64,000 nucleotides of DNA from a virus (IMGVR_UViG_3300030109_006161:1-64000); one strand, 5' to 3'. Shown: positions 1,390-51,452, counted from the stretch's first letter. Notes: generated by a model not told the origin, from the sequence alone. Program-made: numbers and translations.

Positions 1390-2583
1390 TCACATGTCAA
1401 GATTTAGTTTAAAGGTAAAATTATCAATTTCTCTTTTTAGGACAGGGTTAGCTAATTTTGCTATACCTAGAAGATTCTTATGTTCGTCAAAAATACCTAT
1501 TTGGCTTATGAAGGTCTGCTTCTGGAACTCATCATCGTAATTACAGTATTGACTCTGTACTGTGTTTTTGATAGCAATGTCTGTAGGTTCCACATAGCCA
1601 TTTCTGCCAGACGAAACTTTACTTGTCCAGTGAGATGAAGAGTATTCAATCCATGTTGGATTCAAAGAATTATTTGCCTCTCCTGCTTGAACTGTCGCAA
1701 ACATGGTCATAGATGGTATTTTTTGTGTACCCTTAAAGCTGACCGAATACAAACTAGCAGTAGCAGATGTTGGGTTGTTTCCGAACTCAAGCCACGTTGG
1801 CTTTGATAAACTGCCGGCACCAAAGTCATCAAGATCGTCTGAAATGGCGGCGGATGAAGTTAGTAATATAAAACCCTCATTGTAAAGAACGACGCCCACA
1901 GTTGAGCCACTAGTAGAACCAACCACTGATATCAACTCGCCATTCTTTCTTTTGTCAATTGCTTCACCAATTAACGTGCCGGTGTGATAGAATTTTAAAC
2001 TAACAGACCCTTTGTCAATACCATCTGAGAAAAATATTGATGGCACCTGAATCATATTAACTGCGCCTGTAACATAACTGCCTGTATAAGAATAACTGTC
2101 ACTAAGATACTTGTAGTAATTCATTGTGTTTTTTAGAGATATTAATGCTTTCCTTGAATCAGCATATTCGTCTAGTTGCTGCTCATATACAGCTTCGGAT
2201 CCAGGTCCGATACCAAGAGTTGGAAGATCTAGTCCTGTAAAGTAATGACGACCTATAGAAGATGTCATAGGATAGGAACCGTTGATCTGAGTACCAGCAG
2301 CAACTTCGTTATAGGCAGACCCAGTTATCGTTCTAGAGCCCAAATTCATAGTATTATAAAAACCATCTTTGATTATGAATGGTTGAATAAGTGATTGATT
2401 TGTGCCGTCTCGATCTACATTGTATTCGTACAAGCTAACAGTGCCTGTAGGAATGTTTCTACCCAAATCTCTTTCATTGTTTAGGTATGCGGCACCCTTA
2501 TATAAGACAAATTCATATGATGGTTTTGCCACCATACGATTTATCAGTATATCATCGGGACCAAACGAATGAAGGTAGGACAT
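1390..2583 (-). CDS. putative baseplate/tail structural protein
   Basis: 397 aa, S/T/G-rich. C-terminal FISQIGIFDEHKNLLGIAKLANP is shared with the neighbour 2596-3669. Located in the baseplate block. Confidence 0.55.
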   Translation of the reverse strand: MSYLHSFGPDDILINRMVAKPSYEFVLYKGAAYLNNERDLGRNIPTGTVSLYEYNVDRDGTNQSLIQPFIIKDGFYNTMNLGSRTITGSAYNEVAAGTQINGSYPMTSSIGRHYFTGLDLPTLGIGPGSEAVYEQQLDEYADSRKALISLKNTMNYYKYLSDSYSYTGSYVTGAVNMIQVPSIFFSDGIDKGSVSLKFYHTGTLIGEAIDKRKNGELISVVGSTSGSTVGVVLYNEGFILLTSSAAISDDLDDFGAGSLSKPTWLEFGNNPTSATASLYSVSFKGTQKIPSMTMFATVQAGEANNSLNPTWIEYSSSHWTSKVSSGRNGYVEPTDIAIKNTVQSQYCNYDDEFQKQTFISQIGIFDEHKNLLGIAKLANPVLKREIDNFTFKLNLDM

Positions 2584-2595
2584 CCATACCCCCTT

Positions 2596-3669
2596 CTAGT
2601 AATCGTTCCTGACTCTTAGGATCAACTCGCCAGCGGGTGTCTTTTTCAAAGGCTCGCTGAGTTTGGCAACACTTAGCAAAGCGTTGTCTTCACTATAGAG
2701 ACCCACTGTAGTAATGTAAGAGACTGGGTTATCCGCAGACACTTCTTTGACTCTCATTTTGCTAGCACTAAGATATGTGGGGTTGCTACTGAAGTTGAAA
2801 TCACCATTATTTATTCTACAAAAATAAATTGTAGAGTTTAGTTCTGTAGTATTATTAAAGCTGATGTTTTGAATCCTGTGTCTGAACGCATCACATGCGC
2901 CGCTAATACTACTGCTAACCAAAAGATTGAGCGGCTTGAGTCCAGCAGACGTCATTTCACAATCTTCTACAAACGCAGGTTGGAAAACAGACGCAGTTAT
3001 GACTGCAACGCCAGCTTGATAGAATACCAAACCGCAAGGTTTTGGCGAAGCTCCAGGGAACCCAGAACCAGTACCATACAGGATATTGAATTCACCAGCA
3101 GGAGAATTTGTTTTATATGCATTTGGACCATCTTTATCAAAAACAGTTAGAGTTTTTGCAAAAGGATTTGCAAAGGAAGCACTCACGCCAAGAATTGCCG
3201 TGAAACCATCAGCCTGTTTTTGAATCTCATCTTTTGTGAGAAGCCTTGCAAAGTTGATAACAAAAACTTCATTCATGTTGTCAGCAGCAATACCACTTGT
3301 AAAGTTACCGCTGACGTTTAGACGATTGATACTTCCTGTGCTATCGTACCCGGCAAGCATTTGCCCTAGTTCGTTATATATGTCATTTTTCTGATCTCGC
3401 ATACTGATGACAAGTGAACCCGAAAGAAGAGAATCTGTTACCCATCCAGCGGTTAGATCAAAAATGTGGTTAGCCGATGAACTTAGATACGGATAATCAT
3501 AAACAGACTGGAACATACCGTGAGTATAGTTCTTAATGTTGTTCTCGTTTGGGAAAGTACCATAAGTTCCAGATATAATTGTCCCGGTTAGAGGAATTGA
3601 CTCGTGAAGTTTAGTACGAGTGTTCGTAATATCTGTATTTGTATTTAATGTTTTAAAACTAGTCGCCAT
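2596..3669 (-). CDS. putative baseplate/tail structural protein
   Basis: 357 aa. C-terminal YITTVGLYSEDNALLSVAKLSEP is paralogous to 1390-2583. Confidence 0.55.
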   Translation of the reverse strand: MATSFKTLNTNTDITNTRTKLHESIPLTGTIISGTYGTFPNENNIKNYTHGMFQSVYDYPYLSSSANHIFDLTAGWVTDSLLSGSLVISMRDQKNDIYNELGQMLAGYDSTGSINRLNVSGNFTSGIAADNMNEVFVINFARLLTKDEIQKQADGFTAILGVSASFANPFAKTLTVFDKDGPNAYKTNSPAGEFNILYGTGSGFPGASPKPCGLVFYQAGVAVITASVFQPAFVEDCEMTSAGLKPLNLLVSSSISGACDAFRHRIQNISFNNTTELNSTIYFCRINNGDFNFSSNPTYLSASKMRVKEVSADNPVSYITTVGLYSEDNALLSVAKLSEPLKKTPAGELILRVRNDY

Positions 3670-3681
3670 GTTTATATCCTA

Positions 3682-4701
3682 TTATCCTGTATATTTCAAC
3701 AATTTAAGTGGTATCTCCAGACGAGAACCTGTAGTCATGCCTGTGATTCTAATTACAGTGTTGATGAATTTGAAACTAAGACCAAGAGCAGAAATAGTGA
3801 CAGTGCCTCCGAGAGTGTCAAATAGGTGCGTGCTGTTTTGCAACTGTACATCATTATTTGAGCGTAGGCTAAAAATTAGTCTAGATCCAAGTCTTCCTGT
3901 CTGATCGTTTAGTCCAATGACCGATCTTTCTACTCTTGTTACTCCATTACCTTGAACCAGTTCATAAGCTGGTTGAGCGTTACCGCCATTACCGCCAGCT
4001 TGAGAGGCAAAATACCCACTGTTTCTCTCAAGGTTCAACATATAAGAAGCTATATTGTCATCATCAATAAAAGATGGTTGTGCTACTGGTCGTGGATTTG
4101 CGCCGGTGGTGGTTGCTACTGATATCAGGCGGTTATCTACCTCGACCATATACCCCGTTTCAAACAAGCTTTGTTGTTGCTCGTTAGTACCAAACAACAG
4201 ACCCACTGATAAGTCGCCTGTATCCAAACCTTGATCGCAAATAATTCTAGATTCTTCGGCGGTTGCACCAGGGTGAGCGAAGCGATAGCCTGAGCTTGTC
4301 GCTGTGTCAAGGGCATTTGATATTTGAGTTGATGTAGTAGAATCTACTGAAACATAATAACCTCCGGGAACATCGACGGAAGTTGAGGAATCATTTTTGG
4401 TATTAAGCTTTACTACGGGAAGATATAGTAAAGAATTATCGCTATAAGACACTAAACGATTTTTTAGAGATGTTACGTTGTTTGTAAATGCTTCAAAAAC
4501 AGGTAACTTAAGAATTCTCAGATCTTCATACCCAGACCCGCTAACAGGTGATGTGTCATATAAAGAGTAGTCAATTTCATCATCGCCAACAGCAAATTTT
4601 GTAATTCGAAAACTGCCGTCGCCAAGCGCTAAGCGGCGACGACCTTCATCAGTCAAAACCGCATCAAGTATAATATCACCACTATTGTCTAAAAATCCCA
4701 T
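3682..4701 (-). CDS. putative baseplate/tail-fibre attachment protein
   Basis: 339 aa. N-terminal VLTDEGRRRLALG..ITKFAVGDDEIDY resembles tail-collar/baseplate N-termini. Paralogous to 11565-12494. Confidence 0.55.
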   Translation of the reverse strand: MGFLDNSGDIILDAVLTDEGRRRLALGDGSFRITKFAVGDDEIDYSLYDTSPVSGSGYEDLRILKLPVFEAFTNNVTSLKNRLVSYSDNSLLYLPVVKLNTKNDSSTSVDVPGGYYVSVDSTTSTQISNALDTATSSGYRFAHPGATAEESRIICDQGLDTGDLSVGLLFGTNEQQQSLFETGYMVEVDNRLISVATTTGANPRPVAQPSFIDDDNIASYMLNLERNSGYFASQAGGNGGNAQPAYELVQGNGVTRVERSVIGLNDQTGRLGSRLIFSLRSNNDVQLQNSTHLFDTLGGTVTISALGLSFKFINTVIRITGMTTGSRLEIPLKLLKYTG

Positions 4702-4740
4702 AACGTTTCCCTTGTTTGAATCTTACAAATTGATTCCTAA

Positions 4741-4747
4741 TAAATAG
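4741..4747 (-). promoter_or_regulatory. candidate phage late promoter CTATTTA
   Basis: In the 70-nt gap upstream of gene 3682-4701. Recurrent motif. Confidence 0.5.
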
Positions 4748-4771
4748 TTCCAATTTATCAATTTCATTCAT

Positions 4772-7700
4772 TTATGTTTGACCGCCGATGATTTCACCAT
4801 CAACCTTTACAATAAAATTGATTTTCAAATCAAATATTTTACCAGTATCTTTTGATGTAAAACGAACGACCATAGTCTGATCCTCTACTGACTCTCCTAA
4901 ACTGGAAGCTAAACTTCTAACTCCAATAAACCGATCCCCATCTTGCTGTATTGTTGGGAGTGACTGGATATTAGAAGCTTCAATTTTCACAAACCTAGTA
5001 AGATTTTTAGTCGCTGTTTTAGTCGATATTTTTCTTGGTTCAACTCGGTCTATTTCCGGGACAATCAAACCTTTATCCAGAACAAGTTTTATTCTATAAA
5101 TTTGACTTGGGTTAGAAACATTCCCATGACGATCATGAACCACAACGGTGTAAAAATAATCAACATTAGGAGATAGATTATCAAGCACATCGTAAGACCT
5201 GACATATTGAACTTCCATGTCTGATTGATCTCTTAAGTCCCTGTCTGTTGAAAACCTTCTTACCAAAACTTTATCGTTTGTATTTGGGTCGAAAGATTTA
5301 TATAATTCGTTATAGCTCTCAACATCAAAATCCATTCTTGTTGTTCGATATATTGCTATATTTTTTACATCCCGGATTGATTCATTGGCAAATTCTAGCT
5401 TACCTTCTGGAAGTTCATAATTGGTAAACTCACTTTGATACTCGTATAACTCTTCTAGGTTATTAGCTGCATCGCCAATAGAAACAACCTCTAAGGCGTT
5501 CTTACCAATATAAGATCCAATCTGAGGATTTATGTTTATGGCAAACTGACTAGCGTTGCCAACCAGTGGGAAAAAATTAACCTCTGGTGGTGATGGCGGG
5601 CGATCTAAAACTTTTGCTTTCGGATAAGATGTACCACCTGGTTTATTGGCTGCAAATGGAGCCGTTATTCTAACTTGTCTATAAAATTCATCTTGATAAA
5701 TTGGTATTTCATATATTGAAATATCTGGCTCTTCGTCTACATAAAATTCAAACTTTAGCTGGGCGTTGAGTGCTAAACCAGATTCATACACTAACCAACT
5801 TAAGGTTCTATCCGCTTCTTCTTTAGTCGCAATCGGTAAAATATTCTTCACCATTGTTAGGTCAAGTAATGGAGCAATTGCTGCTAACTTATATTTTGTA
5901 CCATAAACAACTCTGTACTCATGTAGCTCATACTTATATTCCCTACCATACATAATCTGCGTATCTATATAGGAAGTTACAAGAGGGCTGGCCTGAGTTT
6001 CAGGAGAGTTTCCAATTATAATATTTTGTGTGGGAACACTGTTAGCTCTACTTGGATCTGTTTTATTTATCCTATATGCCAAAACTTCACTAGGAGTAAT
6101 ATAATGGTTGTAGTTCAATATAGAATTGTAAGCTAAGTTAGAAAAACTTTCACCTCTACGCTCAATATCACGCAAAATGTTTGTGCAGCGAGAAGCCTGA
6201 TTCGCTGTTAAGACTCCTTGCTGATAGGGTTCGTCTTTCTCTCTTAATCCTCCTGGAGTATTGAGCGGCTTATTCTCCATCAATACTAGAACATCACCAA
6301 TGCCGGCATTAGAAGCGTTTCGAATCAAAACGGCAGGATCAAAAACTCTCATTGATAGCTCTAATCCTCTAACTCCATAGTCTCGTACAAAAGAAGACTC
6401 TAACTGTTCGCCAGCACTGGAACCTGATGTAGCTATATAAGTTGTAATAACTTCCTTAGGTGCTCTAGATGCCTGTCCTCCTTGCAGGATTGTAGACAAT
6501 ATAGGACTACTAATATTGTTCTCCCACATTTGACGACCTACATCACCAACAGGTTCCCTAGTAAAACTAACTTGTGTAAACATGGGGTTGGTGAAACGAT
6601 TTCTCATAACCTCAGAAAACATGTCAGTTTCACTTGATGGTATTACTACATTTCGTGTCATCGCTCCGATTTGACTTGCAACAACTCTGTTAAACCTAGG
6701 TATACCTTCAAATCTGTTAGACACGACTGAACCGTAAGTATTGTAATAATCTGCTGTTAAGTTGCCCCTACATGTAGCAACATTGTTTGCAATTCTCTTG
6801 TCAAGAGTGATAAACGTATCATACTTTTCTTTCTGAGCCACAGGAACGTTTGAGTCTAGTTGAGTAAATATGTTTCGAATATAAGCATTCGGTAAAGCAT
6901 TATCATAGGGAGCAACCTCATCATTTATTTGGGAAGAAGACACACCAAGTTCATACTCAGGATAATAATTGTTATAAGAACTTTTGATTCCTGCTTCATA
7001 ACCTCCTTGAAAAACATCACTTACTCGATCGGTTAAGTATGCCTGCGTTTTTTTTGTTGTTACATAGGGGTTCTCAATTGTTAAATTAAGGTGATTATAC
7101 TCCCTGACTGTATCTGCTGATGGTGACAACAATGCATCTTGAATAAGATATTGTTTATCCTGAGGCATGGATTTTATCATTGCCACAGACAACATATAGT
7201 AGTAAAATCTTATCAAGGTAGCTCTAGTGGAATATTGTACTGAATTATTTACTACTCCTTGTTCGTAGTCTTTAAGTCCATTAAACCTAGCCTCTGAAAG
7301 GTTTTGTATTTCTTGAATTCTTGTAATAAGATCACGAATTATATCCCGCACAGATGTGTTTTCCGGGAAACTATCAATATATGCTTGTCTGCCTCTGTTA
7401 GATGTTAATGACCTATCTCTATCAGATCTTGTTAGTCTGAAAGTTGTCGAACCCTCCCGGACGACTTGTGTCAAATTACCAAATATAAAGGTGCTTAGCT
7501 CTTCACCGTCTGGTCCAGAATTCAAAAACCCTAAAAACAAATAGAAATTAAACTCTACACCTATTTCTTCCGTTGGGCTTCTTGCCTGAAGATATTGGCT
7601 TAGTTCACTATTATCGTCGTTGATTGCCTGGATAATGGCAGATGCATTAAGCACCACTTGATCTATTAATTCTCCGGATAAACTTGACAGGGTTCCATCT

Positions 7701-8101: not shown

Positions 8102-8107
8102 TTTATT

Positions 8108-11557: not shown

Positions 11558-11564
11558 GCTTTAT

Positions 11565-12494: not shown

Positions 12495-12519
12495 ATCTTT
12501 AAGTATCTCCAAAGAACAT

Positions 12520-15500: not shown

Positions 15501-18500
15501 TACCTAAAAGTCTTATATCTTCTGCATATTTTTCATAAGAATTATAAAAAGGTGCTGAAGCTCCTCTAAGTTGTCCTTTCAGTGGACCGTCAACGTATCT
15601 TCTCTCTGCGCCCGCAGACCAAGTTGGAAGTGTATATACATTACCGGGTGATCGGGGTTCTGGTTGGTATTGGTTTGGTGAACTACCCAAAGTTCCTGTC
15701 ATCGTCGCAGTAGTATGAACGTATTGAGCGGATACAGTTTCTGTTCTTGTCGTTCCAATCTGACCGTAACTACTTGTAAGTCCATTGTACTTTTCGATAC
15801 CACTAGCAAAATTAGTATTTGCATCCTGAACGGCATGAAAGTAAGGAACCATCAATTCGCCTGCCGGTAACGTTGATTGATCTGCTAAAAGCACAGGTGT
15901 GTTAAAAGTACCAGTAAGCTGAGTTACATATATGTCTGTTTGTTCTGCCGTAAGATAAGGGTCAAGAGGCCAGATTGATCCTCTGCCAGGTCCAACACCT
16001 ATGGGATATGAAGGATCATATAGACTATATGGGTTTTGTTCTGATGCTTTATATCCATAACCCTGAGAATTTGTAAGCGATGTTCTTATTCTATACCAAT
16101 TGGCTGTTAGTTCTTCTAAAAGAATTGAATTATCAGCTAAAAGATCTAATCTGAAACTAGAAAAGTTTGTATAAACGAATTGGGTTGAAAAAGATTTATT
16201 GTCTCTCCAAAAATTATTATCAAAAGATAGACGAGATCGGCTTCCTGATAAGAAGGTGTACTTACCTTTAGGATAAATTGTCTCTTCATAGATAAACTCT
16301 TTTATCGTATCTATTCCATTTAGCTCACGAGATACATCATCAGAAGCTTGTTCTCTCAGTATTTCGTATGGTCGCCTTACTTTACCAAGAGCGTAGTTAA
16401 TATTACCATCTAACTCCTCATTGAGTTCTCTGTTAACAAAACCATTTAAGGATGTGCCATAAGAATATTTTATATCGAGATCTACTTTTGTTTCCTTACC
16501 CGTATCGTCCGATATCATAGGTGTTCTAATTTTATGTTTTAGAGCCTTATATTTTGTAGTTACATAGGGTTCATAAAATCTCTTAGAGTAAAAGTAAGTC
16601 TGACTATTACCTGCTCGATCAGTAGTGGTACGTTCAAAAGTAGATGGTGAAAATCTACTATTCATGTCGATTACTCTAGGATCTAATTCTATTAAGTTAC
16701 CCAGATCTCTCCTGTAAGCTCGACCAGCACGAGTCTCAGAGGCTCGAAGCTGAGTCCAAGGAGCAGAATAAGGCATATCAGACCAAATGTATCTTAAGTT
16801 TTGTCCTGAACCGGAGTATCCTGCTGTGTCAATGTATGTTCCTATGGAATCCGCACCGCCGGCAAAAAACTTAGTACCAGTGGCACCAGCAGCAAGAGAA
16901 AGCTGTATGACTGATCCAGTTACAACTGTGTTTCCTGCTGCACCGCCAACTGATTGTGTTAGGCTAGTGAAATTAGTCTCACCAAGATAGAGAAACGAAT
17001 TAACACCTATACTCAAATCTCCATTGGAAAAAGCTTCAATAACACCTAGTCTCAAACTTTCTGCATATTGATGAGAGGCACTGTACGCTGAAGATCCTCC
17101 TTGGATACCTAGGTCATACTCTGTGTCAGAAGCTTTGAAGACGCCGCCTGCATTTTTAACAGTAGTGTATGTGAAAGTTACAGACCTAGCGGCTGCGTCG
17201 GTGAGTATAACAGTCTCAAGGTGGTAATCAGCCGGACTACTACCCGCAAACTCAAGAAGGTAGTTTGCATTAGTGGCTGCTGTTGGTGTTGGGAGAAATG
17301 GGCTCGGCACAGTCATAACAGATGGGTACTCTGACCCTGATAATACATAATCACTATAGGTTCTTGTGTCGGAACCAGACAATGAAAAGAACCACTGCGT
17401 GCTATTACCGGCTGGTATGGGTCTCATAAAAAAGTATGTATCGTGCAAAGTTCCCGTAATATGAGTTAGCTGAGGAGATGTTTCGTAAATCTCTACACGT
17501 TGAGTAGAGTTTCTTTGAGTTTTTATAGGTGCAGCAACCGTAGTACTAGTACCAAGATAACCACCTTGACCCGTAAACGTACTCAATTCTTTCAAGTATG
17601 GTTTTCTTACTGGGATATTTCTGAACGGAAGTGCATTGTTCGGAGAAAACTGATCTGATCGAACATCTCTAAAAAGTTGATTTGAATCAACCTTTGACCC
17701 AGGGGCTGAAAACCTGCCCGTAAAGATTGTTTTGTTTGTGCGTCGAGTAGCAATCTGACGAGGGGCTGGGTAATCTGCGGAACCTGTCCTGCCAAGAGCA
17801 CGCATAGCTATAGTATTTACAAAAGCAGTCGGAGCATTATACGCATAATTTGCACTATTAAAAGCAAAGTCCATATTGGTTGCTGCTCTATTACTTGTTT
17901 GAACTACTTCATAATCTTTTATGTAATTCCCGATAATTCTTACACTGTTGGATGTAAGAAGAGTTTTAATGTTTGCAATATTTATTGGTGCTTTCGGTCC
18001 CATGCCACGAAGGTAATGACCTCTTGGGGCATCGCCGGTTTCAATAGTGCTAATTGTTCCTATCGGCTCAGTGCCACCAGCAAAAGCAGCGGTAGATGCC
18101 AGGCTATCTAAAAGATCTCCCGTGAAGGCAGTCCCATTTACTGACGATCCTGGTATTTTTGAAGTAATAAAAATCACCGCACCAGAAGAGAAATCTGCAA
18201 TTGCTATACGAAGACCCTGAATGTTTGCTGCTTCGTTTAGGGTTTGCTTAAGAGAGGTTGCTACATCTGTAATACTTGTAGCATCGTTAGTGCCCGTAGT
18301 ACTCTCATTACTCTCTTCCATGTCTGCGGTGGAATCAAAAACAGTTAGGAAAGTAACACCACCCAAAGTTAGAGTTAGTTCCAAACCATCATAATCATCT
18401 TTGTTGAACCCTCCGCCGCCTGCGGCGATCGTTATTGTGGATATAGCATAACCACCGTTTATTGACATAGAAAATTGTTCTTTTCTGTCAGATGTCATTA

Positions 18501-19173
18501 GCGGTGGGTTATGACGAGCCTGTATGCCACCAACATGTGTTTCAGTAAAGGGACCTTGGGCGGGGGTCACCTTTCCTCGGTTTAGGATTGAGTCTCCGTG
18601 AAAATTAGTAAAGTCTAAATTAGATAAACCTCGATCATCTAAAAACTTTCTATACCCAGACACCACAGTGCTTTTGAAAACACTAAACGGAGTAAATAAT
18701 TCTCCGCTATAATTTTCTCCACCTTTGGTTGCCTGAAAAGATATTCTTTTCTTGGTGTTCGGATATACTGAGGATGTTATATTTATTTCAGCCTCAAAAT
18801 TTCTGAATGTGAAATCTCTAGATCTAGGATTTTTATTCAGCATTTGATTACTGCCACCGTGATAAGTGTCACCAAACTCAGCAGAATGATGCATATTTCT
18901 ACGATGATCTAATTCTCGCAAAGCCTCTCTTTTAACCGACTGTCTGGTGTATAACATATCCCCTGAGCCTGAAAGTATAACACCATAGCGCTCTGCTCGG
19001 TTTTGCCACCAGGCACCGTTTTCGGTTTCTAGTCCTGATATCGGTGCGTGGTTATATTTCCAAGTTGTGGGAGTTTCTAATACAGACCTTATATTACTCC
19101 TTTGATTGGAGCCTCCAATTATTCTTTTATTGGGAGCAGGGGGTGCTGTATTTATTATTGTTTTGTTTGCCAT
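12520..19173 (-). CDS. giant virion structural protein (baseplate/tail associated)
   Basis: 2217-aa ORF, S/T/G-rich, with two Ala/Gly-rich modules ending in FAGG. Confidence 0.55.
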   Translation of the reverse strand: MANKTIINTAPPAPNKRIIGGSNQRSNIRSVLETPTTWKYNHAPISGLETENGAWWQNRAERYGVILSGSGDMLYTRQSVKREALRELDHRRNMHHSAEFGDTYHGGSNQMLNKNPRSRDFTFRNFEAEINITSSVYPNTKKRISFQATKGGENYSGELFTPFSVFKSTVVSGYRKFLDDRGLSNLDFTNFHGDSILNRGKVTPAQGPFTETHVGGIQARHNPPLMTSDRKEQFSMSINGGYAISTITIAAGGGGFNKDDYDGLELTLTLGGVTFLTVFDSTADMEESNESTTGTNDATSITDVATSLKQTLNEAANIQGLRIAIADFSSGAVIFITSKIPGSSVNGTAFTGDLLDSLASTAAFAGGTEPIGTISTIETGDAPRGHYLRGMGPKAPINIANIKTLLTSNSVRIIGNYIKDYEVVQTSNRAATNMDFAFNSANYAYNAPTAFVNTIAMRALGRTGSADYPAPRQIATRRTNKTIFTGRFSAPGSKVDSNQLFRDVRSDQFSPNNALPFRNIPVRKPYLKELSTFTGQGGYLGTSTTVAAPIKTQRNSTQRVEIYETSPQLTHITGTLHDTYFFMRPIPAGNSTQWFFSLSGSDTRTYSDYVLSGSEYPSVMTVPSPFLPTPTAATNANYLLEFAGSSPADYHLETVILTDAAARSVTFTYTTVKNAGGVFKASDTEYDLGIQGGSSAYSASHQYAESLRLGVIEAFSNGDLSIGVNSFLYLGETNFTSLTQSVGGAAGNTVVTGSVIQLSLAAGATGTKFFAGGADSIGTYIDTAGYSGSGQNLRYIWSDMPYSAPWTQLRASETRAGRAYRRDLGNLIELDPRVIDMNSRFSPSTFERTTTDRAGNSQTYFYSKRFYEPYVTTKYKALKHKIRTPMISDDTGKETKVDLDIKYSYGTSLNGFVNRELNEELDGNINYALGKVRRPYEILREQASDDVSRELNGIDTIKEFIYEETIYPKGKYTFLSGSRSRLSFDNNFWRDNKSFSTQFVYTNFSSFRLDLLADNSILLEELTANWYRIRTSLTNSQGYGYKASEQNPYSLYDPSYPIGVGPGRGSIWPLDPYLTAEQTDIYVTQLTGTFNTPVLLADQSTLPAGELMVPYFHAVQDANTNFASGIEKYNGLTSSYGQIGTTRTETVSAQYVHTTATMTGTLGSSPNQYQPEPRSPGNVYTLPTWSAGAERRYVDGPLKGQLRGASAPFYNSYEKYAEDIRLLGKDYTIVPEFRVSEHISEYSSNASFLSVVSSSLELTGASVNVFDSTNEEFYDRYATTDNFDFLDNFMSLDETDRNYVFNKYPRHFEISSDAIIKLLPYEGFYPVNRTLQIATHFSQSYSNSFIFTGADAGNRRALRTVLRPFFSPGILYNSIKSGIAVDYPIRRADRDYPDSWSTVLPSIYNVFTNKQDSKLGTALYNGGLRALPYPALYTLDTSFGNGLLPSNTRRLQNINFNTSSVGGFVNRALFYSDRLPFESILAPENYLSTGSNSEIISADSTDYFQYVIASASIEPSALTDTSLYKKSMSNFLANVPKFFLKKKFNKYGHEGSLTKFVSQFGAVPKGSQASTSPERKVAINPKNAYMMEIGLMKTDQFNMYSNPHAFGPSTFTHGEINTWDTLKASGSFVPDNPPWPKHRGEFAPFTAPYYYGPSLARITFLPTGDKKEYTLDEIINNDRGEVFVDFINESGSYYDIASGSFVDADGNSRASTTTPGYGWNRAWLNRMDVDASLFINNEFPTGDGEIYKSTDPNKWTIMPKWECPILDFPNRTASDIYNFSSSVEPGSYTQRTQGMWHQYGVTPSSDDGVYMYIKDIPTGKNEEYDRIAVSYVSTFTKPVPFTDFSGSYHHVRKVPKFVIDSGRSISSLADLCGFDPDEIIRQGFEPAKAKRLGELADDNENSISEAILALPFYLDDNGAPNLVNLQAPASKLGPKIKEFRKNFTKYSLPPSLAYKLLGLVPKGYPTIPNVINPFGPDEYDEVLKGSDILQSPVVYLMEHKVSLSKQDLADIWQNIMPDIANRLTKSFSAIDHYMPGDNVGSSTTKFPEVLKQQIKLGVTQDGHPRYDLLDIAKKCSDGFVPEIRWLVFRVKERGVANYTQFIAEEIDGPAALGYDNAKELMLLQGLPEQEVEKNLAERDEFAKNTYIKKHSLDSPTFNWPYDYCSLIELAKIDGKVGFRPDLEKEYKEALETGGSDEQLIKTSIENIARNVMKPDKE

Positions 19174-19177
19174 TTAG

Positions 19178-19184
19178 TAACTAG
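19178..19184 (-). promoter_or_regulatory. candidate phage late promoter CTAGTTA
   Basis: 4 nt upstream of ATG 19173 with no SD. Confidence 0.5.
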
Positions 19185-19203
19185 TCTCTATAAAAATATC
19201 TTG

Positions 19204-22200
19204 TCAGCCGTATCCGCCACCAGGTGGTCTTGGTCCGCCCTGAGGTCCTAACCCTCCGCCAAGTCCAGGATTCGGCTGACCTTGGAGTTGTCCTTGAACT
19301 TGTGGTCCTGGTGCCTTCTGTGAACGGTCTTCATGTGGTGGCGGTGGCTCTTGCGGTTGTTCTGGTGGAACATCGTTACCGCCAATATCATTAATTTCGC
19401 TTGGCTGTCCATTGGGTCTCAAAGGTTGTTGCGGCGGAAACGAGACAGGGTGATTAGGATCGCCAGGTACACCCATTGGCTCGTAACCTCCGCCAAGATT
19501 AGATATAGGTCCCGCATTTCCAGCACCCCAGGGGTTGGCATACTTTATCAAAGGTGCTTTATGTTGTATTTTATTTCGCTCTAAAGTATGGCTTTCAATT
19601 ACATTCCTAACAAAAGGTGCATATCTAGCAGATACAGGGAATAACTGCTGGATCATATTGCCAATTGCTGAATCTAACCACTTGTAATAATCTAAATATT
19701 TTTGTAAGTCTGGTCGCTCGTTTTGCACTTTCCTGAAAAATATTTCTCTCAACTTTTGCATCTTTTTGTATTCTAATCGATACTTGTTGACAGGTTCACC
19801 GATCAAATTATTAAATTCATCAATAGATGCAAACAAATGCAGCATTCGATTTGATATACTGCGATACATACTTTTTTCTACAGCATAAAAGCTGCTAGCA
19901 GGCTTTTTATAGGTTCCAAAAACTTCATCATCATTATTCAGAATCTTAATCATTTCCGTAGAAGAAATATATTCAGGCGGAAGCAGCTTATCTGTATGAA
20001 TAAATTCTTTTCGGGCTGGTTCAGAATAAGCTCCAAAGAAATCACCCCTCGCTGAATGTTTTCTTAAGTTTATATTACTAAACACCGTTCCTTGATAACT
20101 TCCAATATATTCATCACTAAATGAACCAGAAGATGCATCAGTTACGAGAAACCTGCCAGAACCATCACTGCTGGTAATATTTGTAAACTCCCAGTTTAGA
20201 GCCAAAGTTTGAATCGAAGGAGTATAAGATGATATTGTACCTGTCTGAAACAAATACGGATTCCTCGAAGGGTTCAAAACACCATGGGTATCTGCTTCTT
20301 TTGCCTGAAGGTCTAGCACTGTAATAGGAAGGTAATCAGTCCAATATCTAACACTGGTTGCTCTCACATCAGTTTGATTAGCAACAGTTCCTGTAAAATT
20401 AGTTCTGTGTGCGCCAGCGTATATACGTTTTGCTTTTGATAATATACTAGATCCACTACTGTATGTCAAGGTTGTTGTAGAAGAAAAACTATGCTTCTTC
20501 ATACCTGTGTCGTAGTTCACACCATAAAGACCCAACTCATAATTGTTTGTTCCCACACTAGTACCAAATACACTATCTGCAAACGGGTACTTGGTTGGCT
20601 TGAGAGTTAGGGATAAATTCCACTTTTTATTTTCGTATACATTTCGATATATACTGGAAGTTAGCAGTGTGTCGCCGGCTCGATTCTTAACTACAAAGAA
20701 AGCATCCTTAACTCTATAACCTGGAGATGTTATTTCTGCAAAGTCTCCAGGGCTCCTAACTGCAAAAACTTGAAGTCCATAATCATCTATAGCATTAGCC
20801 CAAGTTAGATCGGTTGAAGTATTATCTAAAATATATGGACTATGAAATCCAAACAATGAGGAACTGACAACACGAGGTAATTCTGCACCAGTAGAAACAT
20901 AAGCTTCTTTATTTGGAAAGATAAACTCTCCCTGGAGTGTAAAGGCAAATTGATCTAAATCTAGAGAACTGCTTATTAAACCTGATGACGCTGCATCATT
21001 AGCATCATAATATTGATATACTGTAGCATCTGCATCTGTCGTGGAAAGTAGTGACGTAAAATCAATATATTTTTTTGTACTTACTGATGACAAGTAACTA
21101 CTGCTAATTTCATAGTCTGCGTTGTTGGCGTAATTATTTAGAGCTATAACATCTTCACCAACACCGATACATCTTATAAAGTTTCTAACAGCTTTTTCAT
21201 TTCCCTTAGATTTTAGAATGTAATTCAGGTTGTTGTAAATATTCTTGTAGATAGAGTTTTTGATATCCGGCAAGTGCTGATCAAAATTTATTTTCTCGTC
21301 TCTTTCAAGGAATTGTCCCAAAACACCTATGTTTTCAAAAAGTTCTGGGGCGTCAATACCCATATTTTCAACAAGTCTGTCATTGTAAGGGAACTCATCA
21401 ATAGAGTTTGTCAAGGTTCCACTAACATACTTGTTATACTTAAGTTCTCTAAGAGAAGTAACCTGATTATATATCGTATCGAAATAACTAGATAAAATCT
21501 GTGTTATGTTTACTATTTCGTTGCCGTTATTTTCTTCTGTTTCAATAACCCAATTAGGTAAATGATTTAATAATCTTGAATTATTATTGTTATCATAGTA
21601 ATTTCCAGAAAGTTCGTAAGATGCTTTTAGAGAAGTATAAGATGGATTTGTACTTCTAACTATTGGATCGCCTCGCTCTATCACAGACACTATATTTTGC
21701 TGATCTATTGCTGAGCCTGTGTTTCTAGAGTATGATGCATCATAGCCGACATATAAACCATTTGATAATCTGCCGGAATAATCTAAAACAATTTGATCTA
21801 CACTTGTTGTTTCGGTAAGTCCCTCATTGAATTTGTAATAAACACCCAAACTAACGTTGGCGTCATATTTGTCAGAACCTCCCTCAACGTTATGAAGCCA
21901 GTATCTTCCAATTTGTTCTGCTGTTCTATTAGTTTTCCAGAACCTAAACTCATCCAAAGATGCAGATAGTTTACCTGCCCCAAGATAAGTGGCCGGAAGA
22001 GAGCCTGTTGGGTTTTGGCGGAGAGCACCAATATTAGCTATCATAGTACCAGTGACCTGGCTAATCGCACCATTGGCTGCAATCCCAGTATCTATACACT
22101 TGCCATTGACATAGAAATCTAAAAGCGGTGTGGACTGGGAAGTATCAAACACAAAGCCAAAATTTCTCCATGTTCCATCTGAAATTGTTATGTTTCCTGA

Positions 22201-22929
22201 GCCAGTGGGAACTAAAACATTATCGAAACCAGATGTCCCAGACATCATAGTAACCCTAAACTGAGTCTCAGATCCTGAAACTAATTCTATTCTAAAGCGA
22301 CCATAGTCATCTTCTGTTGAGTCAGTCTGTCCGTTTGTAAGGTCAAATATTACTTGGTTCGGAGACTCTGACCCTGAGTCTATCAGTTGATTTTTTTGGA
22401 GAAAAAACTCGACAGAGGAACCGCTGGGACCGCCAAATTCTAGATTAGATGTTCTATATTTAACCTCATTGAATTTAGTGCTCTTGTGTGGTCCACCTTT
22501 GACCTCTATATATTGTCCTAGAGATGAGGAGTAATACCCTGCTGAGTTGGAGGTAATTGTGCCGTAGGTTGCACCGTTAGTTATAAACCCAGTTGATCTT
22601 GGATAAATTACATCTAAAGTGTATTTTTCTAATGGATTTACATCATTATAAAAGTTAGTTTTTTCCAAAGAAGAGCCATCATAAGGATAATAACTCATGA
22701 TATATTGAAATGCATTCTTGTAATACTCATACGCTGAACCAAAGCGGACAAAGTTTTCTGGCTTTGAATAATCTACAGGAGGAAGAAAATAATCTTTCTT
22801 TTTCTGTAGGGCTTTGAGGTGCTCGTTAGACTCTATTCCACTGCCCAGCGTTTCGGCTGAGCTAGGTGATAAGTACTTGCTAACTAATGTACCTTCTCGA
22901 TTGCTCTGGTATAGCTTTTTTAAACTCAT
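19204..22929 (-). CDS. baseplate-associated protein with LamG/concanavalin-like domain and Pro/Gly/Gln-rich tail
   Basis: 1241 aa. LamG-like signatures DGTWRNFGFVF..DFYVNG and SLDEFRFWKTNRT..YYKFNEG. Low-complexity C-terminus. Confidence 0.6.
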   Translation of the reverse strand: MSLKKLYQSNREGTLVSKYLSPSSAETLGSGIESNEHLKALQKKKDYFLPPVDYSKPENFVRFGSAYEYYKNAFQYIMSYYPYDGSSLEKTNFYNDVNPLEKYTLDVIYPRSTGFITNGATYGTITSNSAGYYSSSLGQYIEVKGGPHKSTKFNEVKYRTSNLEFGGPSGSSVEFFLQKNQLIDSGSESPNQVIFDLTNGQTDSTEDDYGRFRIELVSGSETQFRVTMMSGTSGFDNVLVPTGSGNITISDGTWRNFGFVFDTSQSTPLLDFYVNGKCIDTGIAANGAISQVTGTMIANIGALRQNPTGSLPATYLGAGKLSASLDEFRFWKTNRTAEQIGRYWLHNVEGGSDKYDANVSLGVYYKFNEGLTETTSVDQIVLDYSGRLSNGLYVGYDASYSRNTGSAIDQQNIVSVIERGDPIVRSTNPSYTSLKASYELSGNYYDNNNNSRLLNHLPNWVIETEENNGNEIVNITQILSSYFDTIYNQVTSLRELKYNKYVSGTLTNSIDEFPYNDRLVENMGIDAPELFENIGVLGQFLERDEKINFDQHLPDIKNSIYKNIYNNLNYILKSKGNEKAVRNFIRCIGVGEDVIALNNYANNADYEISSSYLSSVSTKKYIDFTSLLSTTDADATVYQYYDANDAASSGLISSSLDLDQFAFTLQGEFIFPNKEAYVSTGAELPRVVSSSLFGFHSPYILDNTSTDLTWANAIDDYGLQVFAVRSPGDFAEITSPGYRVKDAFFVVKNRAGDTLLTSSIYRNVYENKKWNLSLTLKPTKYPFADSVFGTSVGTNNYELGLYGVNYDTGMKKHSFSSTTTLTYSSGSSILSKAKRIYAGAHRTNFTGTVANQTDVRATSVRYWTDYLPITVLDLQAKEADTHGVLNPSRNPYLFQTGTISSYTPSIQTLALNWEFTNITSSDGSGRFLVTDASSGSFSDEYIGSYQGTVFSNINLRKHSARGDFFGAYSEPARKEFIHTDKLLPPEYISSTEMIKILNNDDEVFGTYKKPASSFYAVEKSMYRSISNRMLHLFASIDEFNNLIGEPVNKYRLEYKKMQKLREIFFRKVQNERPDLQKYLDYYKWLDSAIGNMIQQLFPVSARYAPFVRNVIESHTLERNKIQHKAPLIKYANPWGAGNAGPISNLGGGYEPMGVPGDPNHPVSFPPQQPLRPNGQPSEINDIGGNDVPPEQPQEPPPPHEDRSQKAPGPQVQGQLQGQPNPGLGGGLGPQGGPRPPGGGYG

Positions 22930-24443
22930 ACATCTTCTTCTTGTATCTTAAATTTGAATACTTCATCTTGCTCTCTATATCCACCTTGTAAATAGTAAGC
23001 AAATTGAATTCCATAAGAGTATCCAGGCTCTAAAAACGATGTATCTAGTTCAAAATAGTTACCGCTCACATCATAAGAAAGTCTTGTATAGTTGTTAGCT
23101 ACCGTACCTGTTCCAAAAGGAACAATCTCAAGGCTATCTATTGTTCTAAAAACCCTATAGTATGCGTCCTCTACAATCGTTGGTTCGATTTCCTTGGTAG
23201 CAACTGTATATATATTCGGACTCCAGTCCTTGTTTCGGATAAACACTCTTAAATTAGGTTTTTGACCTTTTGTATAAGATGGACTCAAGTTAGTAATATT
23301 TGTAACGTACTCTGTGTCGTATAACAAATCTGATGTATCGACAGGAATTGGTTCATAAGATCCAGTGTAAAAATCAATTCTGTCAGCACCAGAGCCTGTG
23401 TGCCAGACATCAAACACAGTATCCAAGCTACTAGTAGAGGCAAAAGACGCTGTATAAATACCAGTAGCAGTTGTTCCATTCTCTAATAATAGACCTGCGG
23501 TAAGCGCTGTCACAGTAGCACCGTCAGAATCTACCACTACCAGTGGTGATCCATCAGGTGTTGTACTGCCAGAATATAATTCAACAGACAATAAATTATT
23601 TGCTAGATTAGGAATATTAGTCAACTGACCTCTTATAACGTTATATAAAAATAATGTATTTAGATTATCTGCGCTGGTTGCTAAGCTGCTACTGATGTAA
23701 AAATTGCCCCTGTTATCTTTACGAGTAGTATCCCAACGAGCCTCTAAGGTTGGACGGTAAAAATAATATTCACTGGTTCTAGAGAAAAACTTTTTCGTAT
23801 AAAGTGTTTCAGATGCAGACAAGGCAGAGTCTGGAAATTTTACCAAGAATCCGTAGTTTTCTATCTGATTAGCTTCATTCAACCACTTATATATTTGTTC
23901 TGAAACATCAACCGATAAATTTTCAAGCCCCGTTTCAAAAACCACACTAGCAGAAGTGTTTAGTCCCGATATAAACGAAGATCCTGTAACACCCCAATCT
24001 GCGGCTGATGTTCTTTTTTCCCAGTTGCTAAAACCTGCGTCTGTATAATTGTCCATATCCAGACCTCGACCCTCGGACCAACTTTGCGAAATCATCATCA
24101 AGTCAAGAGTAAAATCTTCTGGCAAAGTATTGCCATGTGGTGCATTGTATAAGTTTAAATTAAATTTTATACTTGCTGAATCGGCTGGCAGCACGCCAGA
24201 TGAAATATCAGACTGTATGCTACTAATAGGGAACTGAATTATAAATCTGCTTTGTTCCGCATTTTGTGCGTTAGTTAGCGACGGAGTTGTCGAAAGCGAT
24301 GCCGAGGTTTGTCCGTGAATAACAAAAGTCTCTAATACATCAGCAGCACCCATATTAGAACCAGTGGCTCTAGTTATAAGGTCTGACTCAAAAGCGTTTG
24401 TTATCGTATTGTCTAATGTAGCAAAATATTTCTTAATACCCAT
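22926..24443 (-). CDS. virion structural protein (beta-sandwich, DNRLRE/CBM-like N-terminal domain)
   Basis: 505 aa. SQSWSEG..W..VDVS..W..NYGFLVK..FFSR..RPTLEARW pattern. Directly follows the gp6-like gene. Confidence 0.5.
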   Translation of the reverse strand: MGIKKYFATLDNTITNAFESDLITRATGSNMGAADVLETFVIHGQTSASLSTTPSLTNAQNAEQSRFIIQFPISSIQSDISSGVLPADSASIKFNLNLYNAPHGNTLPEDFTLDLMMISQSWSEGRGLDMDNYTDAGFSNWEKRTSAADWGVTGSSFISGLNTSASVVFETGLENLSVDVSEQIYKWLNEANQIENYGFLVKFPDSALSASETLYTKKFFSRTSEYYFYRPTLEARWDTTRKDNRGNFYISSSLATSADNLNTLFLYNVIRGQLTNIPNLANNLLSVELYSGSTTPDGSPLVVVDSDGATVTALTAGLLLENGTTATGIYTASFASTSSLDTVFDVWHTGSGADRIDFYTGSYEPIPVDTSDLLYDTEYVTNITNLSPSYTKGQKPNLRVFIRNKDWSPNIYTVATKEIEPTIVEDAYYRVFRTIDSLEIVPFGTGTVANNYTRLSYDVSGNYFELDTSFLEPGYSYGIQFAYYLQGGYREQDEVFKFKIQEEDV

Positions 24444-36615: not shown

Positions 36616-36809
36616 TATTCTGTTGCTACTTCAAAACCTTGATTAGCTTGAGTGTCACCAAAAGATGGTGGATTTGTTACAACCACCTCGCCTGTTTCAT
36701 TGATTTCTAAATTCCAATCAGATAAAAGCTCGGTAATATCAGATTCCTCAGCTAAGCATTTCTGCAAAGTCATCAAAAGAGCGCCAATTGCTTGATTAGA
36801 TAGTTTCAT
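36615..36809 (-). CDS. hypothetical protein
   Basis: 64-aa ORF overlapping both neighbours. AGGAG SD upstream. Confidence 0.6.
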
Positions 36810-40420: not shown

Positions 40421-40421
40421 A

Positions 40422-45385: not shown

Positions 45386-45401
45386 GTGTTATTTCCTTAG
45401 A

Positions 45402-46331: not shown

Positions 46332-46347
46332 TTTTTTCTCCATATCA

Positions 46348-46376
46348 AATATAAATTATAATTTTTGTTTCGTAAA
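46348..46376 (-). promoter_or_regulatory. possible internal sigma70-type promoter
   Basis: TTTACG-N17-TATATT in the only sizeable gap within the sugar cluster. Confidence 0.35.
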
Positions 46377-46379
46377 GAT

Positions 46380-47297: not shown

Positions 47298-47298
47298 T

Positions 47299-51447: not shown

Positions 51448-51452
51448 ATTTT

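Follow-up and report, generated by a model that had tools for sequence, protein, structure and literature searches.

The baseplate and fibre genes of an uncultured aquatic phage (IMGVR_UViG_3300030109_006161:1-64000; this whole stretch of 64,000 nucleotides is called the window) lie downstream of six genes with glycosyltransferase (GT) domains (48550-57330), and short [S/T]-[G/A/S]-[S/T] tripeptides are dispersed over several of the encoded proteins. It has to be asked whether these tripeptides mark acceptor sites of O-glycosylation by the neighbouring enzymes, as the original prediction proposed, or belong to the architecture of the tail itself. The phage is a member of a clade of aquatic myoviruses of Bacteroidota, Cyanobacteria and Rhodothermota, which consists of the present phage, its IMG/VR relatives, LR756508, Flavobacterium phage immuto, Microcystis phage Mel-JY01 and Rhodothermus phage RM378, the last three being in culture; metagenomes, marine (Tara) samples included, are rich in the clade. 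Completeness is 53% for G000 (a 109-kb contig, about half a genome) and 98% for the relative G002. Motifs were counted as [ST][GAS][ST] with overlaps included, and the expectation was taken for each protein from composition-preserving shuffles (Table 1).

Table 1. Features of the window, with motifs seen vs expected where counted; every gene of the set is on the minus strand
Feature	Coordinates	Strand	Motifs	Annotation or remark
397-aa protein	1390..2583	-	10 vs 3.4, z 3.7	
357-aa virion protein	2596..3669	-	10 vs 3.2, z 3.9	
339-aa protein	3682..4701	-	6 vs 3.2, z 1.6	weak excess; homologues in immuto and Mel-JY01
1109-aa and 1149-aa large proteins within the block	4772..11557	-	5 vs 4.5; 6 vs 7.7	not enriched
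315-aa protein	11565..12512	-	4 vs 2.1, z 1.4	not significant
2217-aa fibre-like protein	12520..19173	-	28 vs 17.1, z 2.8	
1241-aa tail/baseplate protein	19204..22929	-	23 vs 8.3, z 5.2	ConA-like (Laminin_G_3) domain, Pfam PF13385
505-aa outer baseplate protein	22926..24443	-	14 vs 5.4, z 4.0	directly downstream of gp6-like gene
gp6-like baseplate wedge protein, 598 aa	24445..26241	-	0 vs 2.6	PHROG 219 and 10646; internal negative control
Variable sugar-nucleotide and glycosyltransferase island	36796..54764	-		Pfam
Conserved tandem GT4-like glycosyltransferases	54767..57330	-		Pfam Glycos_transf_1; 431 aa (56035-57330), 423 aa (54767-56038)
PD-(D/E)XK nuclease	57321..58160	-		PF12705; always precedes GT4 pair in clade

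Exact counting bore out the earlier hand counts, and the five proteins named in the original prediction all exceeded their shuffles (z 2.8-5.2). When seven proteins were pooled and the shuffling was confined to windows of 10, 20 or 40 residues, 95 motifs were seen against 47-52 expected (z 6.8-7.4). The tripeptide class as first proposed held in part: the Gly-centred form [ST]-G-[ST] was strongly enriched (49 vs 15.1, z 9.2), but in the present phage the Ala-centred (18 vs 12.8) and Ser-centred (28 vs 20.3) forms were only weakly so, and SGT, SAT, TAS, TAT, SST and TST showed no enrichment. TAS had been listed beside TGS, SGS, SAS and SSS as a usual form and turned out not to be common, while TGT and TSS, which had not been listed, were. 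Throughout the outer tail and baseplate proteins of the clade [ST]-G-[ST] stands about threefold above chance.

The order of the residues mattered, since TGS (15 occurrences), SGS (19) and TGT (12) outnumbered their permutations (3-4, 7-9 and 2-3, respectively), and an unbiased ranking of every tripeptide observed (3085) put SGS 1st, TGS 10th and TGT 11th. The remark that a hydrophobic residue often precedes the motif was correct, hydrophobics reaching 1.7 times background at -1 and also at +1; phi-[ST]G[ST] had 24 occurrences against 5 expected. Around Gly the enrichment was limited to Ser/Thr on either side and did not extend to N-G, D-G, G-N or G-D, and a middle position confined to Gly together with sides confined to Ser/Thr is unlike a generic turn preference. 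The codons of the motif were mixed, which places the signal at the protein level, and its flanks resembled one another no more than the flanks of S/T sites drawn at random do (z -0.1); it is thus a bare tripeptide and no piece of a repeated domain. It was found in at least five sequence-unrelated proteins within one virion module.

The excess was restricted to outer tail proteins, and it was shared by the relatives. In G002 the homologues of the 2217-aa and 1241-aa proteins are fused into one protein of 3185 aa with 55 motifs (20.4 expected, z 7.9), and the orthologue of the 397-aa protein carries 13 (2.9 expected, z 6.3); fibres, a 397-aa and a 251-aa protein were marked, the sheath and one neck protein more weakly. 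The major capsid protein of G002 (5 vs 3.4, z 0.9), its portal, terminase, gp6 and homologue of the 2027-aa protein of the window (upstream of the gp25-like gene) were unmarked, as were its counterparts of the 1109-aa and 1149-aa proteins (2 vs 3.6; 3 vs 3.9). The syntenic 1241-aa homologues were enriched as well in immuto (17 vs 8.5) and Mel-JY01 (24 vs 8.7), whose gp6-like homologues likewise showed no enrichment. Two distant homologues, the 505-aa one of LR756508 and the 357-aa one of RM378, had no excess in spite of the GT pair being present in both phages.

Individual sites were conserved across 35-80% identity with class-preserving exchanges among SAS, SSS, SGS and TGS. In the 505-aa protein 11 of the 14 sites were class-kept in 10 or more of the 13 close orthologues, and 57 representatives of this family had on average 12.2 motifs where 4.4 were expected. 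The 357-aa family is very large (at least 8000 metagenomic matches, some of them from Tara ocean samples); an alignment of 78 sequences, the query and 77 homologues, gave a mean of 10.1 motifs, and sites 28, 33, 63 and 225 were kept in 73-77 of the 77 homologues. The C-terminal 170 residues of the 397-aa protein are distantly related to the 357-aa protein (22% identity).

Such constancy could also be expected from an unmodified structural or assembly motif, i.e. a hydroxyl-Gly-hydroxyl cap or breaker at strand and helix ends in exposed loops, or an inter-subunit hydrogen-bonding patch, which the beta-sandwich tail proteins of the clade happen to use and keep at fixed positions. We consider this rather unlikely, although several observations speak for it. 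Most of the excess lies at positionally conserved sites: with these masked, the ratio of observed to expected fell to 1.5 for the 505-aa family and to 1.0 for that of the 357-aa protein, and lineage-specific insert domains gave just 1.3-1.5. The 505-aa protein consists of a CBM-like jelly roll and Ig/FN3-like sandwiches (AF2 pLDDT 89.4; fold matches), the motifs gather at strand and helix termini, and the hydrophobic neighbours on both sides suit such a role. On the other hand, at conserved sites the middle Gly exchanges freely with Ala and Ser, which would not be expected of a positive-phi turn glycine, Asn, Asp and Pro, the residues that commonly form turns, are not enriched beside Gly, and the motif recurs in unrelated proteins, in heterogeneous structural contexts and with unrelated flanks.

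Control phages bear on the same question. When 35 structural proteins from T4, lambda and T5 whose S/T content is similar were counted, z ranged from -1.6 to +2.7, and [ST]G[ST] totalled about 49 against about 47 expected; no excess was seen in the beta-rich gp12, gp34, gp37, gp10 and Hoc of T4, J and V of lambda, and pb1, pb4 and pb10 of T5. These controls leave the ordinary turn composition of S/T/G-rich beta proteins, offered earlier as the alternative, without support. The highest value belonged to the T4 sheath, a protein for which we know of no glycosylation, and this modest excess favours the structural account, as does the lack of avoidance in phage proteins outside the virion (15 vs 15.8 in G000, 28 vs 23.4 in G002). 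Avoidance there might be expected if a cytoplasmic enzyme read the bare tripeptide.

Exposure of the sites was judged by proxy, from the secondary structure of two AF2 models and from the substitutions at lost sites. Motif centres fell in coil in 17 of 24 cases, mostly beside a strand or a helix end, while 4 of the 14 motifs of the 505-aa model lay within beta strands; the 357-aa model (pLDDT 67) gave no match in the fold search. Where orthologues had lost the motif, the three positions turned polar or small (hydrophobic in 0-17%, background 33%), so the sites are probably exposed. Buried motifs would have spoken against the glycosylation idea; on this partial evidence the motifs do not look buried.

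The candidate protein-directed transferases are the tandem GT4 pair, which has orthologues in G002, immuto, Mel-JY01, RM378 and LR756508, and the order nuclease-GT4 pair is the same in immuto, Mel-JY01, G002 and RM378. In the 431-aa member E-x7-E is kept without exception; in the 423-aa member its second Glu is variable and replaced by Asn in G002 and RM378. The adjoining island encodes Gmd, five SDR epimerase/reductases, a UGDH-like protein, a C-methyltransferase, an FkbM-like methyltransferase, a formyltransferase, two DegT-like proteins and a Gfo/Idh/MocA protein together with GT15, GT1-like, GT4 and GT2 transferases, and it shares almost no gene with G002, immuto or Mel-JY01. Motif and pair are inherited together: among 50,697 phage records the same seven carry both a GT4 homologue and a 357-aa homologue, and GTs were present in 5 of 5 IMG/VR relatives tested. 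No relative devoid of the GT4 pair was found in either set to serve as control, and as both are clade markers, their co-occurrence counts as a single evolutionary event and not as a correlation.

The 109-kb contig, about half a genome, is devoid of flippase, polymerase, exporter and membrane-bound initiating transferase, and a hydropathy scan of it revealed no polytopic membrane protein, the sole two-helix protein being a 102-aa Mpo1-like one, which suggests a cytoplasmic acceptor. Host machinery could substitute for the export functions missing from the contig. A pathway of the O-antigen or capsule type does not fit this gene content, an ABC exporter being absent as well.

According to our proposal, [ST]-G-[ST], with Ala or Ser tolerated in the middle over evolution, would be a surface tag on outward-facing tail, baseplate and fibre proteins, read by a phage enzyme acting in the host cytoplasm. 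The likeliest reader would be the GT4 pair, which may start the glycan at one hydroxyl or at both. To this first sugar the island transferases could add further ones (6-deoxy, amino, N-formyl and C-methyl), for whose synthesis the adjacent genes (Gmd, SDR, DegT, formyltransferase, methyltransferase) would provide, and the tail would acquire a glycan coat peculiar to the strain, which might serve protection, adhesion or masking. We hold this scheme as a whole only tentatively, its chances being somewhat short of even. The original reading of the tripeptide as an O-glycosylation sequon is supported in part, by the excess, the conservation and the GT pair, and several neutral or negative results weigh against the hypothesised sequon. 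Considering that the pair is conserved without a GT-less control, that the motif is not avoided elsewhere and that two homologues lack the excess, glycosylation of virion proteins at the motif is plausible but unproven, and we would put it slightly below an even chance.

The specificity, the exposure and the outer-tail restriction of the motif would suit any reader, hence the place of a glycosyltransferase might be taken by another modifying enzyme (kinase, acyl- or methyltransferase), by a chaperone of tail-fibre assembly, or by a surface for ligands such as a patch of paired hydroxyls in contact with host polysaccharide; this is improbable, because none of these candidates is conserved together with the motif in the way of the GT4 pair, and the window offers no pointer to a particular alternative enzyme. 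That the motif follows, without any function, from composition, low complexity or repeats at the DNA level, as proteins so rich in Ser, Thr and Gly (17-21% S+T) might suggest, is largely refuted and can hardly be credited in view of z values of about 7 under local shuffles, the tripeptide scan, the unenriched permutations of the same residues, the residue specificity, the mixed codons, site conservation down to 35% identity and control phage proteins of equal composition without excess.

The sugars could in principle be destined for DNA, as in the glucosyl-hmC of T-even phages and arabinosyl-5hoC (PMC13326640). This is unlikely, since no ThyA homologue (PF00303), the kind of thymidylate synthase by which the hydroxylated pyrimidine is made in such systems, was found in G000 or G002, and published LC-MS data on immuto DNA (bioRxiv 10.1101/2023.04.13.536721) show canonical dA, dC and dT, fdPreQ1 in place of dG, and no glycosylated nucleoside. 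In the literature on the clade we found no proteomic or glycan data and no chemical sign of glycosylation in any member.

Virions of mycobacteriophages are O-glycosylated by phage-encoded glycosyltransferases, according to the account in PMC12582341, which cites Freeman et al. 2023 (Cell Host Microbe 31:1216). The present case resembles theirs in that phage GTs lie beside structural genes and virion proteins are the proposed acceptors, modified in the cytoplasm before or during assembly. In mycobacteriophages glycosylation is demonstrated chemically, and the glycans reportedly sit on C-terminal extensions rich in Ser/Thr that belong to capsid and tail-tube subunits, whereas the candidate sites considered here are internal tripeptides dispersed over baseplate and fibre proteins; acceptor tails of the mycobacteriophage type were not seen, the major capsid protein is not enriched, and the GT island is far larger (about 22 genes).

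A second comparison is with GtfA/GtfB, the two-protein O-GlcNAc transferase of Gram-positive serine-rich repeat adhesins. By analogy only, a cytoplasmic GT-B (GT4-type) pair would again act on Ser in Ser-small-Ser contexts; in the phage, however, the substrates would be tail proteins of several folded domains in which the tripeptide stands isolated, unlike the long Ser-rich repeats of the adhesins. A catalytic GT-B protein with a non-catalytic partner, the arrangement of GtfA/GtfB, may exist in the phage pair, one member of which is invariant in E-x7-E and the other degenerate in some lineages. Membership in the family was not borne out, as NCBIfam gave generic GT4 matches far below the cut-offs and no GtfA/GtfB model at E <= 0.01. 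A PDB sequence search with the pair returned weak generic GT4 matches or none, the best for the 431-aa member including the chlorovirus glycosyltransferase B736L (3oy2, E 9e-5); in these PDB and NCBIfam searches the GT4s resembled no characterised protein O-glycosyltransferase. Like the phage, the giant viruses with glycosylated fibrils or capsids (Mimivirus, chloroviruses) encode both rare-sugar synthesis (6-deoxy, amino, methylated) and GTs and decorate their own outer structures without host export machinery, as is proposed here; their hosts are eukaryotic and their acceptor rules different or unknown, in contrast to a tailed phage of bacteria with a proposed tripeptide acceptor. Three-residue acceptors dispersed over many proteins are also a feature of the Bacteroidota O-sequon D-(S/T)-(A/I/L/V/M/T) and of N-linked sequons, but these systems are periplasmic, while that of the phage would be cytoplasmic. 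No known sequon equals the motif, and the known ones were not enriched: D-[ST]-[AILVMT] 26 vs 21.7, N-x-[ST] 57 vs 63, and the PglB form [DE]-x-N-x-[ST] 7 vs 7.1.

Extended to the whole lineage, the proposal describes a widespread aquatic myovirus clade with sequon-directed cytoplasmic O-glycosylation, in which the GT4 pair reads the tag and a hypervariable island builds strain-specific glycans; this wider statement we regard as more doubtful still, closer to one chance in three than to even. Should the tag prove to be a glycosylation site, the decoration of virions with glycans would cease to be a speciality of actinobacteriophages and become a core trait of an abundant aquatic lineage, and protein glycosylation by phages would have its first simple acceptor motif. 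It would explain the large, fast-changing sugar islands without export genes, and would amount to a phage counterpart of O-antigen diversity borne on the virion itself. A glycan coat on baseplate and fibres would matter for host recognition, resistance to proteases and grazers, and the stickiness of particles in the water column. Even if it were purely structural, the motif would still amount to a sequence rule of uncommon sharpness for how tail proteins are built, specific to this clade.

The excess of the tripeptide [ST][GAS][ST] (core [ST]G[ST]) in outer tail proteins of the window phage is real, and it is sharper than first described. Exact recounting reproduced the hand counts of the original prediction (14, 10, 10, 23 and 28 motifs in the 505-, 357-, 397-, 1241- and 2217-aa proteins, named here by length, and 0 in the gp6-like protein), and composition-preserving shuffles yielded z values of 2.8-5.2 in these five proteins. 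When shuffling was confined to windows of 10, 20 or 40 residues the pooled excess persisted (95 motifs against 47-52 expected, z ~7), therefore local S/T/G-rich patches are not its cause. The order of the residues matters: TGS, SGS and TGT were counted 15, 19 and 12 times, whereas permutations of each occur only 3-4, 7-9 and 2-3 times, respectively. In an unbiased ranking of the 3085 observed tripeptides SGS stood 1st, TGS 10th and TGT 11th, the ranks between being taken by tripeptides found only two to three times. Strong enrichment of [ST]-x-[ST] was restricted to Gly at x (49 against 15.1, z 9.2), with Ala and Ser reaching only z 1.6. On both sides of this Gly only Ser and Thr were enriched (at the right position 34 against 8.1 and 15 against 7.0, respectively), and its classical turn neighbours Asn, Asp and Pro showed no enrichment beside it. 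The frequent hydrophobic residue before the motif was likewise confirmed, hydrophobics being 1.7-fold over background at -1, and similarly at +1. The 1109- and 1149-aa proteins, which lie inside the outer tail block, are not enriched.

Mixed codon usage in the tripeptides places the signal at the protein level and rules out a DNA-level repeat as its origin. Furthermore, the eight residues flanking each motif on either side resemble each other only as those of random S/T sites do (z -0.1), and by BLAST the carrier proteins are unrelated, save one weak paralogy between the 397- and 357-aa proteins. The motif is thus a bare tripeptide in unrelated contexts, and a shared domain as its source is also ruled out.

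The window covers the initial 64 kb of a 109-kb phage contig; all its genes are on the minus strand, and 730 bp separate the sugar island from the tail module (see the table). Of the nine proteins of the outer tail block only the 1241-aa one gave a Pfam or PHROGs match, to a ConA-like domain. The 2027-aa protein, flanked by the M23-peptidase protein and the gp25-like gene, has no PHROG match, is not motif-enriched (6 against 6.5) and diverges fast (23-55% identity among relatives); its location suggests a possible tape-measure or hub function. A 922-aa protein encoded outside the window has 22 motifs where 11.9 are expected (z 3.0). The word CTACTTA, a candidate late promoter, was matched only twice in the window, where 11 matches were expected, and was uninformative.

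Coordinates and order of the features discussed in the window phage and its relatives
Feature	Position	Strand	Remark
PhoH-like gene, PD-(D/E)XK nuclease, two GT4-like glycosyltransferases	pair 54767-57330	-	first in transcription direction
Trio PD-(D/E)XK nuclease, GT4 (431 aa), GT4 (423 aa)	57321-58160, 56035-57330, 54767-56038	-	window
Same trio, relatives' loci L019; L020; L033	5965-9884; 5376-10303; 8212-11893		
Sugar island transferases GT2, GT4, GT15, GT1-like	~18 kb	-	after GT4 pair in transcription direction
Sugar-nucleotide enzymes: Gmd, five SDR epimerase/reductases, UGDH-like, C-methyltransferase, FkbM-like methyltransferase	same ~18 kb	-	
Other island enzymes: formyltransferase, two DegT-like genes, Gfo/Idh/MocA gene	same ~18 kb	-	
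DegT/DnrJ-type aminotransferase gene	51453-52286	-	277 aa
GT15 homologue	49536-50444	-	
DegT/DnrJ-type aminotransferase gene	47975-48568	-	197 aa
Formyltransferase (PF00551)	47299-47994	-	within sugar island
UDP-glucose/GDP-mannose dehydrogenase-like gene	39551-40447	-	298 aa, TTG start
Tail module start: M23-peptidase protein, then 2027-aa protein		-	after 730-bp gap
2027-aa protein	26657-32740	-	
gp25-like gene	26260-26664	-	
gp6-like gene	24445-26241	-	
Proteins of 505, 1241, 2217, 315, 1149, 1109, 339, 357, 397 aa		-	transcription order, after gp6-like gene
922-aa protein	70357-73125 (genome coordinates)	-	outside window
Three tandem ~500-aa proteins of G002 (L028)	154526-159168	-	

The alternative offered with the original prediction, ordinary composition of S/T/G-rich beta proteins, was rejected by comparison with a control set of 35 T4, lambda and T5 structural proteins, many of which have the same 17-24% Ser+Thr. 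The set includes the fibres gp12, gp34, gp37 and pb1, the J protein and, as carriers of Ig/FN3 domains, Hoc, pb10 and pb4. Tail controls of like S/T content showed no excess: z ranged from -1.6 to +2.7, the T4 sheath alone being mildly high (z 2.7), and [ST]G[ST] totalled ~49 against ~47 expected. The outer tail block of the window phage gave 51 against 17.8, and its block from gp6 to M23 gave 6 against 4.1. The motifs were not depleted in the 84 non-structural proteins of the window phage (15 against 15.8).

The motif excess characterises outer tail proteins across the clade. In the 178.6-kb, 98%-complete genome of the IMG/VR relative G002 it is clear in the 3185-aa fibre (z 7.9), the orthologue of the 397-aa protein (z 6.3) and a 251-aa protein (z 4.2), weaker in the neck protein (z 2.7) and in the sheath (1123 aa, PHROG 23; 19 against 11, z 2.5), and absent from the major capsid protein, portal, terminase, gp6 and the homologue of the 2027-aa protein encoded upstream of the gp25-like gene. 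Syntenic tail proteins of Flavobacterium phage immuto and Microcystis phage Mel-JY01 are enriched (e.g. 24 against 8.7, 12 against 4.1, 10 against 3.3), with [ST]G[ST] counts of 8 against 2.5, 5 against 1.1, 6 against 1.1 and 28 against 10.1 in the homologues from immuto, and the gp6 homologues of both phages have no excess. No excess is seen either in two homologues from the most distant members, that of the 505-aa protein in LR756508 (1 against 0.8) and that of the 357-aa protein in RM378 (1 against 2.4), and other tail proteins of these two phages are enriched (z 3.6-3.7). G002 also encodes three tandem ~500-aa proteins strongly depleted of [ST][GAS][ST]: rich in Ser, Thr and small residues, they have 0-2 motifs each where shuffling predicts 6.7-10.5 (z ~-3), and a PHROGs search with one of them gave no match.

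The individual sites are well conserved. Orthologues of the 505-aa protein were found at 14 IMG/VR loci (41-80% identity), and 11 of its 14 sites each retain a motif of the class in at least 10 of the 13 full-length ones compared; members of the class swap freely (SAS/SSS/SGS/TGS at site 89, SAS/SSS/SGT/SGS at site 209). The family comprises 1161 representatives at 50% clustering; an alignment of 57 full-length members, made up of the query and 56 representatives sharing 35-64% identity with it, averages 12.2 motifs per sequence against 4.4 expected, with z >2 in 86%. For the 357-aa protein at least 8000 relatives were found in metagenomes, part of them from Tara ocean samples; its alignment of 78 sequences has a mean of 10.1 motifs, sites 28, 33, 63 and 225 being nearly invariant as a class. 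This free exchange of Gly, Ala and Ser explains the [G/A/S] centre originally proposed. When the conserved sites were masked, the remaining excess was 1.5-fold in the 505-aa family and 1.0-fold, i.e. none, in the 357-aa family. New motifs at variable positions exceeded chance weakly in the former (3.5 against 2.3) and gave no signal in the latter (1.63 against 1.62), and lineage-specific insert domains of the 505-aa family had only 1.3-1.5-fold excess. Since there is little excess outside the conserved sites, selection seems to maintain specific sites rather than a number of sites.

The motifs had been expected in surface-exposed loops, and their positions were read off the DSSP strings of two AF2 models. 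The 505-aa model (pLDDT 89.4, pTM 0.86) consists of a CBM-like jelly roll and Ig/FN3-like sandwiches; that of the 357-aa protein is of only modest quality (pLDDT 67), and Foldseek and VIA-align found no convincing fold match for it (best Z 3.8). Of 24 motif centres, 17 lie in coil, mostly right at a strand or helix end, 5 within strands and 2 in helices. Where family members lack the motif at a conserved site, small or polar residues replace it (hydrophobics 0-17% against 33-34% background). By these substitutions, an indirect indicator of exposure, the sites probably lie at the protein surface.

GT4 genes lie near the baseplate module in all five IMG/VR relatives tested. The trio of PD-(D/E)XK nuclease and two GT4 is conserved in the window phage, G002, immuto, Mel-JY01 and RM378 (GT4 identity 24-59%), and hardly any of the remaining 20 island genes is common to the window phage and the compared relatives; in RM378 the pair has no further flanking sugar gene and ribonucleotide reductase is next. 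The order of the trio is constant from Rhodothermus phage RM378 to the window phage, and everything downstream varies. Among 50,697 phage records the 431-aa GT4 and the 357-aa tail protein match the identical seven (immuto four times, Mel-JY01, LR756508, RM378), six of which are the sole full-length matches of the gp6-like protein; no orthologues in phages without the glycosyltransferases were found in this collection. As motif and GT4 pair both mark one clade, their co-occurrence is a single historical event. The E-x7-E motif is invariant in the 431-aa GT4, and its second Glu is Asn in the 423-aa partner of G002 and RM378. Neither GT4 resembles any characterised protein O-glycosyltransferase, and sequence comparison gave no support for a GtfA/GtfB, TibC-type or other protein O-GT identity of the pair.

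The GT15 homologue (Kre2/Mnt1-type alpha-1,2-mannosyltransferase; Pfam PF01793, E 2.8e-19) covers nearly the whole profile, and GT15 is a mainly eukaryotic family. Measured against a profile of 360 positions, both DegT/DnrJ-type proteins are short; since immuto encodes a 214-aa counterpart of the 197-aa form, the latter is conserved and not a fresh truncation. The dehydrogenase-like protein matches the N-terminal and central domains of its family, not the C-terminal one. In immuto, formylation of preQ1 in DNA has been proposed as the role of DpdN, a protein with PF00551 (bioRxiv 10.1101/2023.04.13.536721); the substrate of the formyltransferase in the sugar island might be an amino sugar or a deazaguanine base.

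Concerning other acceptors of the island sugars, a hydropathy scan of the whole 109-kb contig found no polytopic membrane protein, hence no flippase, polymerase, exporter or membrane-bound initiating transferase, in what is about half a genome and where host machinery could serve. DNA glycosylation of the T-even or 5-hydroxycytosine type requires a ThyA homologue (PMC13326640), and none was found in the 53%-complete genome of the window phage or in the near-complete G002. Published LC-MS data for immuto DNA show canonical dA, dC and dT and formyl-preQ1 in place of dG, and no glycosyl nucleoside (bioRxiv 10.1101/2023.04.13.536721). By elimination, a soluble cytoplasmic acceptor such as a virion protein is the simplest reading.

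O-glycosylation of the motif by phage enzymes is accordingly considered possible, and we put it forward tentatively. The single historical event behind the co-occurrence of motif and GT4 pair, the bias to conserved sites, the two distant homologues without excess and the unenriched 1109- and 1149-aa proteins cut against it, as does the absence of avoidance: non-virion proteins are free to carry the tripeptide, so a cytoplasmic enzyme reading it must need additional context, or its stray modification must be harmless. A structural cap or interface motif involving no modification is rather unlikely; the location of most centres at strand or helix ends fits it, and the free exchange of Gly, Ala and Ser argues against a glycine required for backbone geometry. 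That another kind of reader recognizes the motif is improbable, although the specificity of the motif, its probable exposure and its confinement to outer tail proteins would suit any reader, and a functionless by-product, given sites so conserved, is scarcely credible.

No literature on glycosylation of RM378 or immuto virions was found, and the search on Mel-JY01 returned nothing. Known glycosylation sequons are not enriched, and the window phage differs in defining features from mycobacteriophage virion glycosylation, as its GT4 pair does from the GtfA/GtfB system. Consequently, if O-glycosylation of the motif is true, it would belong to no described system and would represent phage virion glycosylation in a variant outside all of them.
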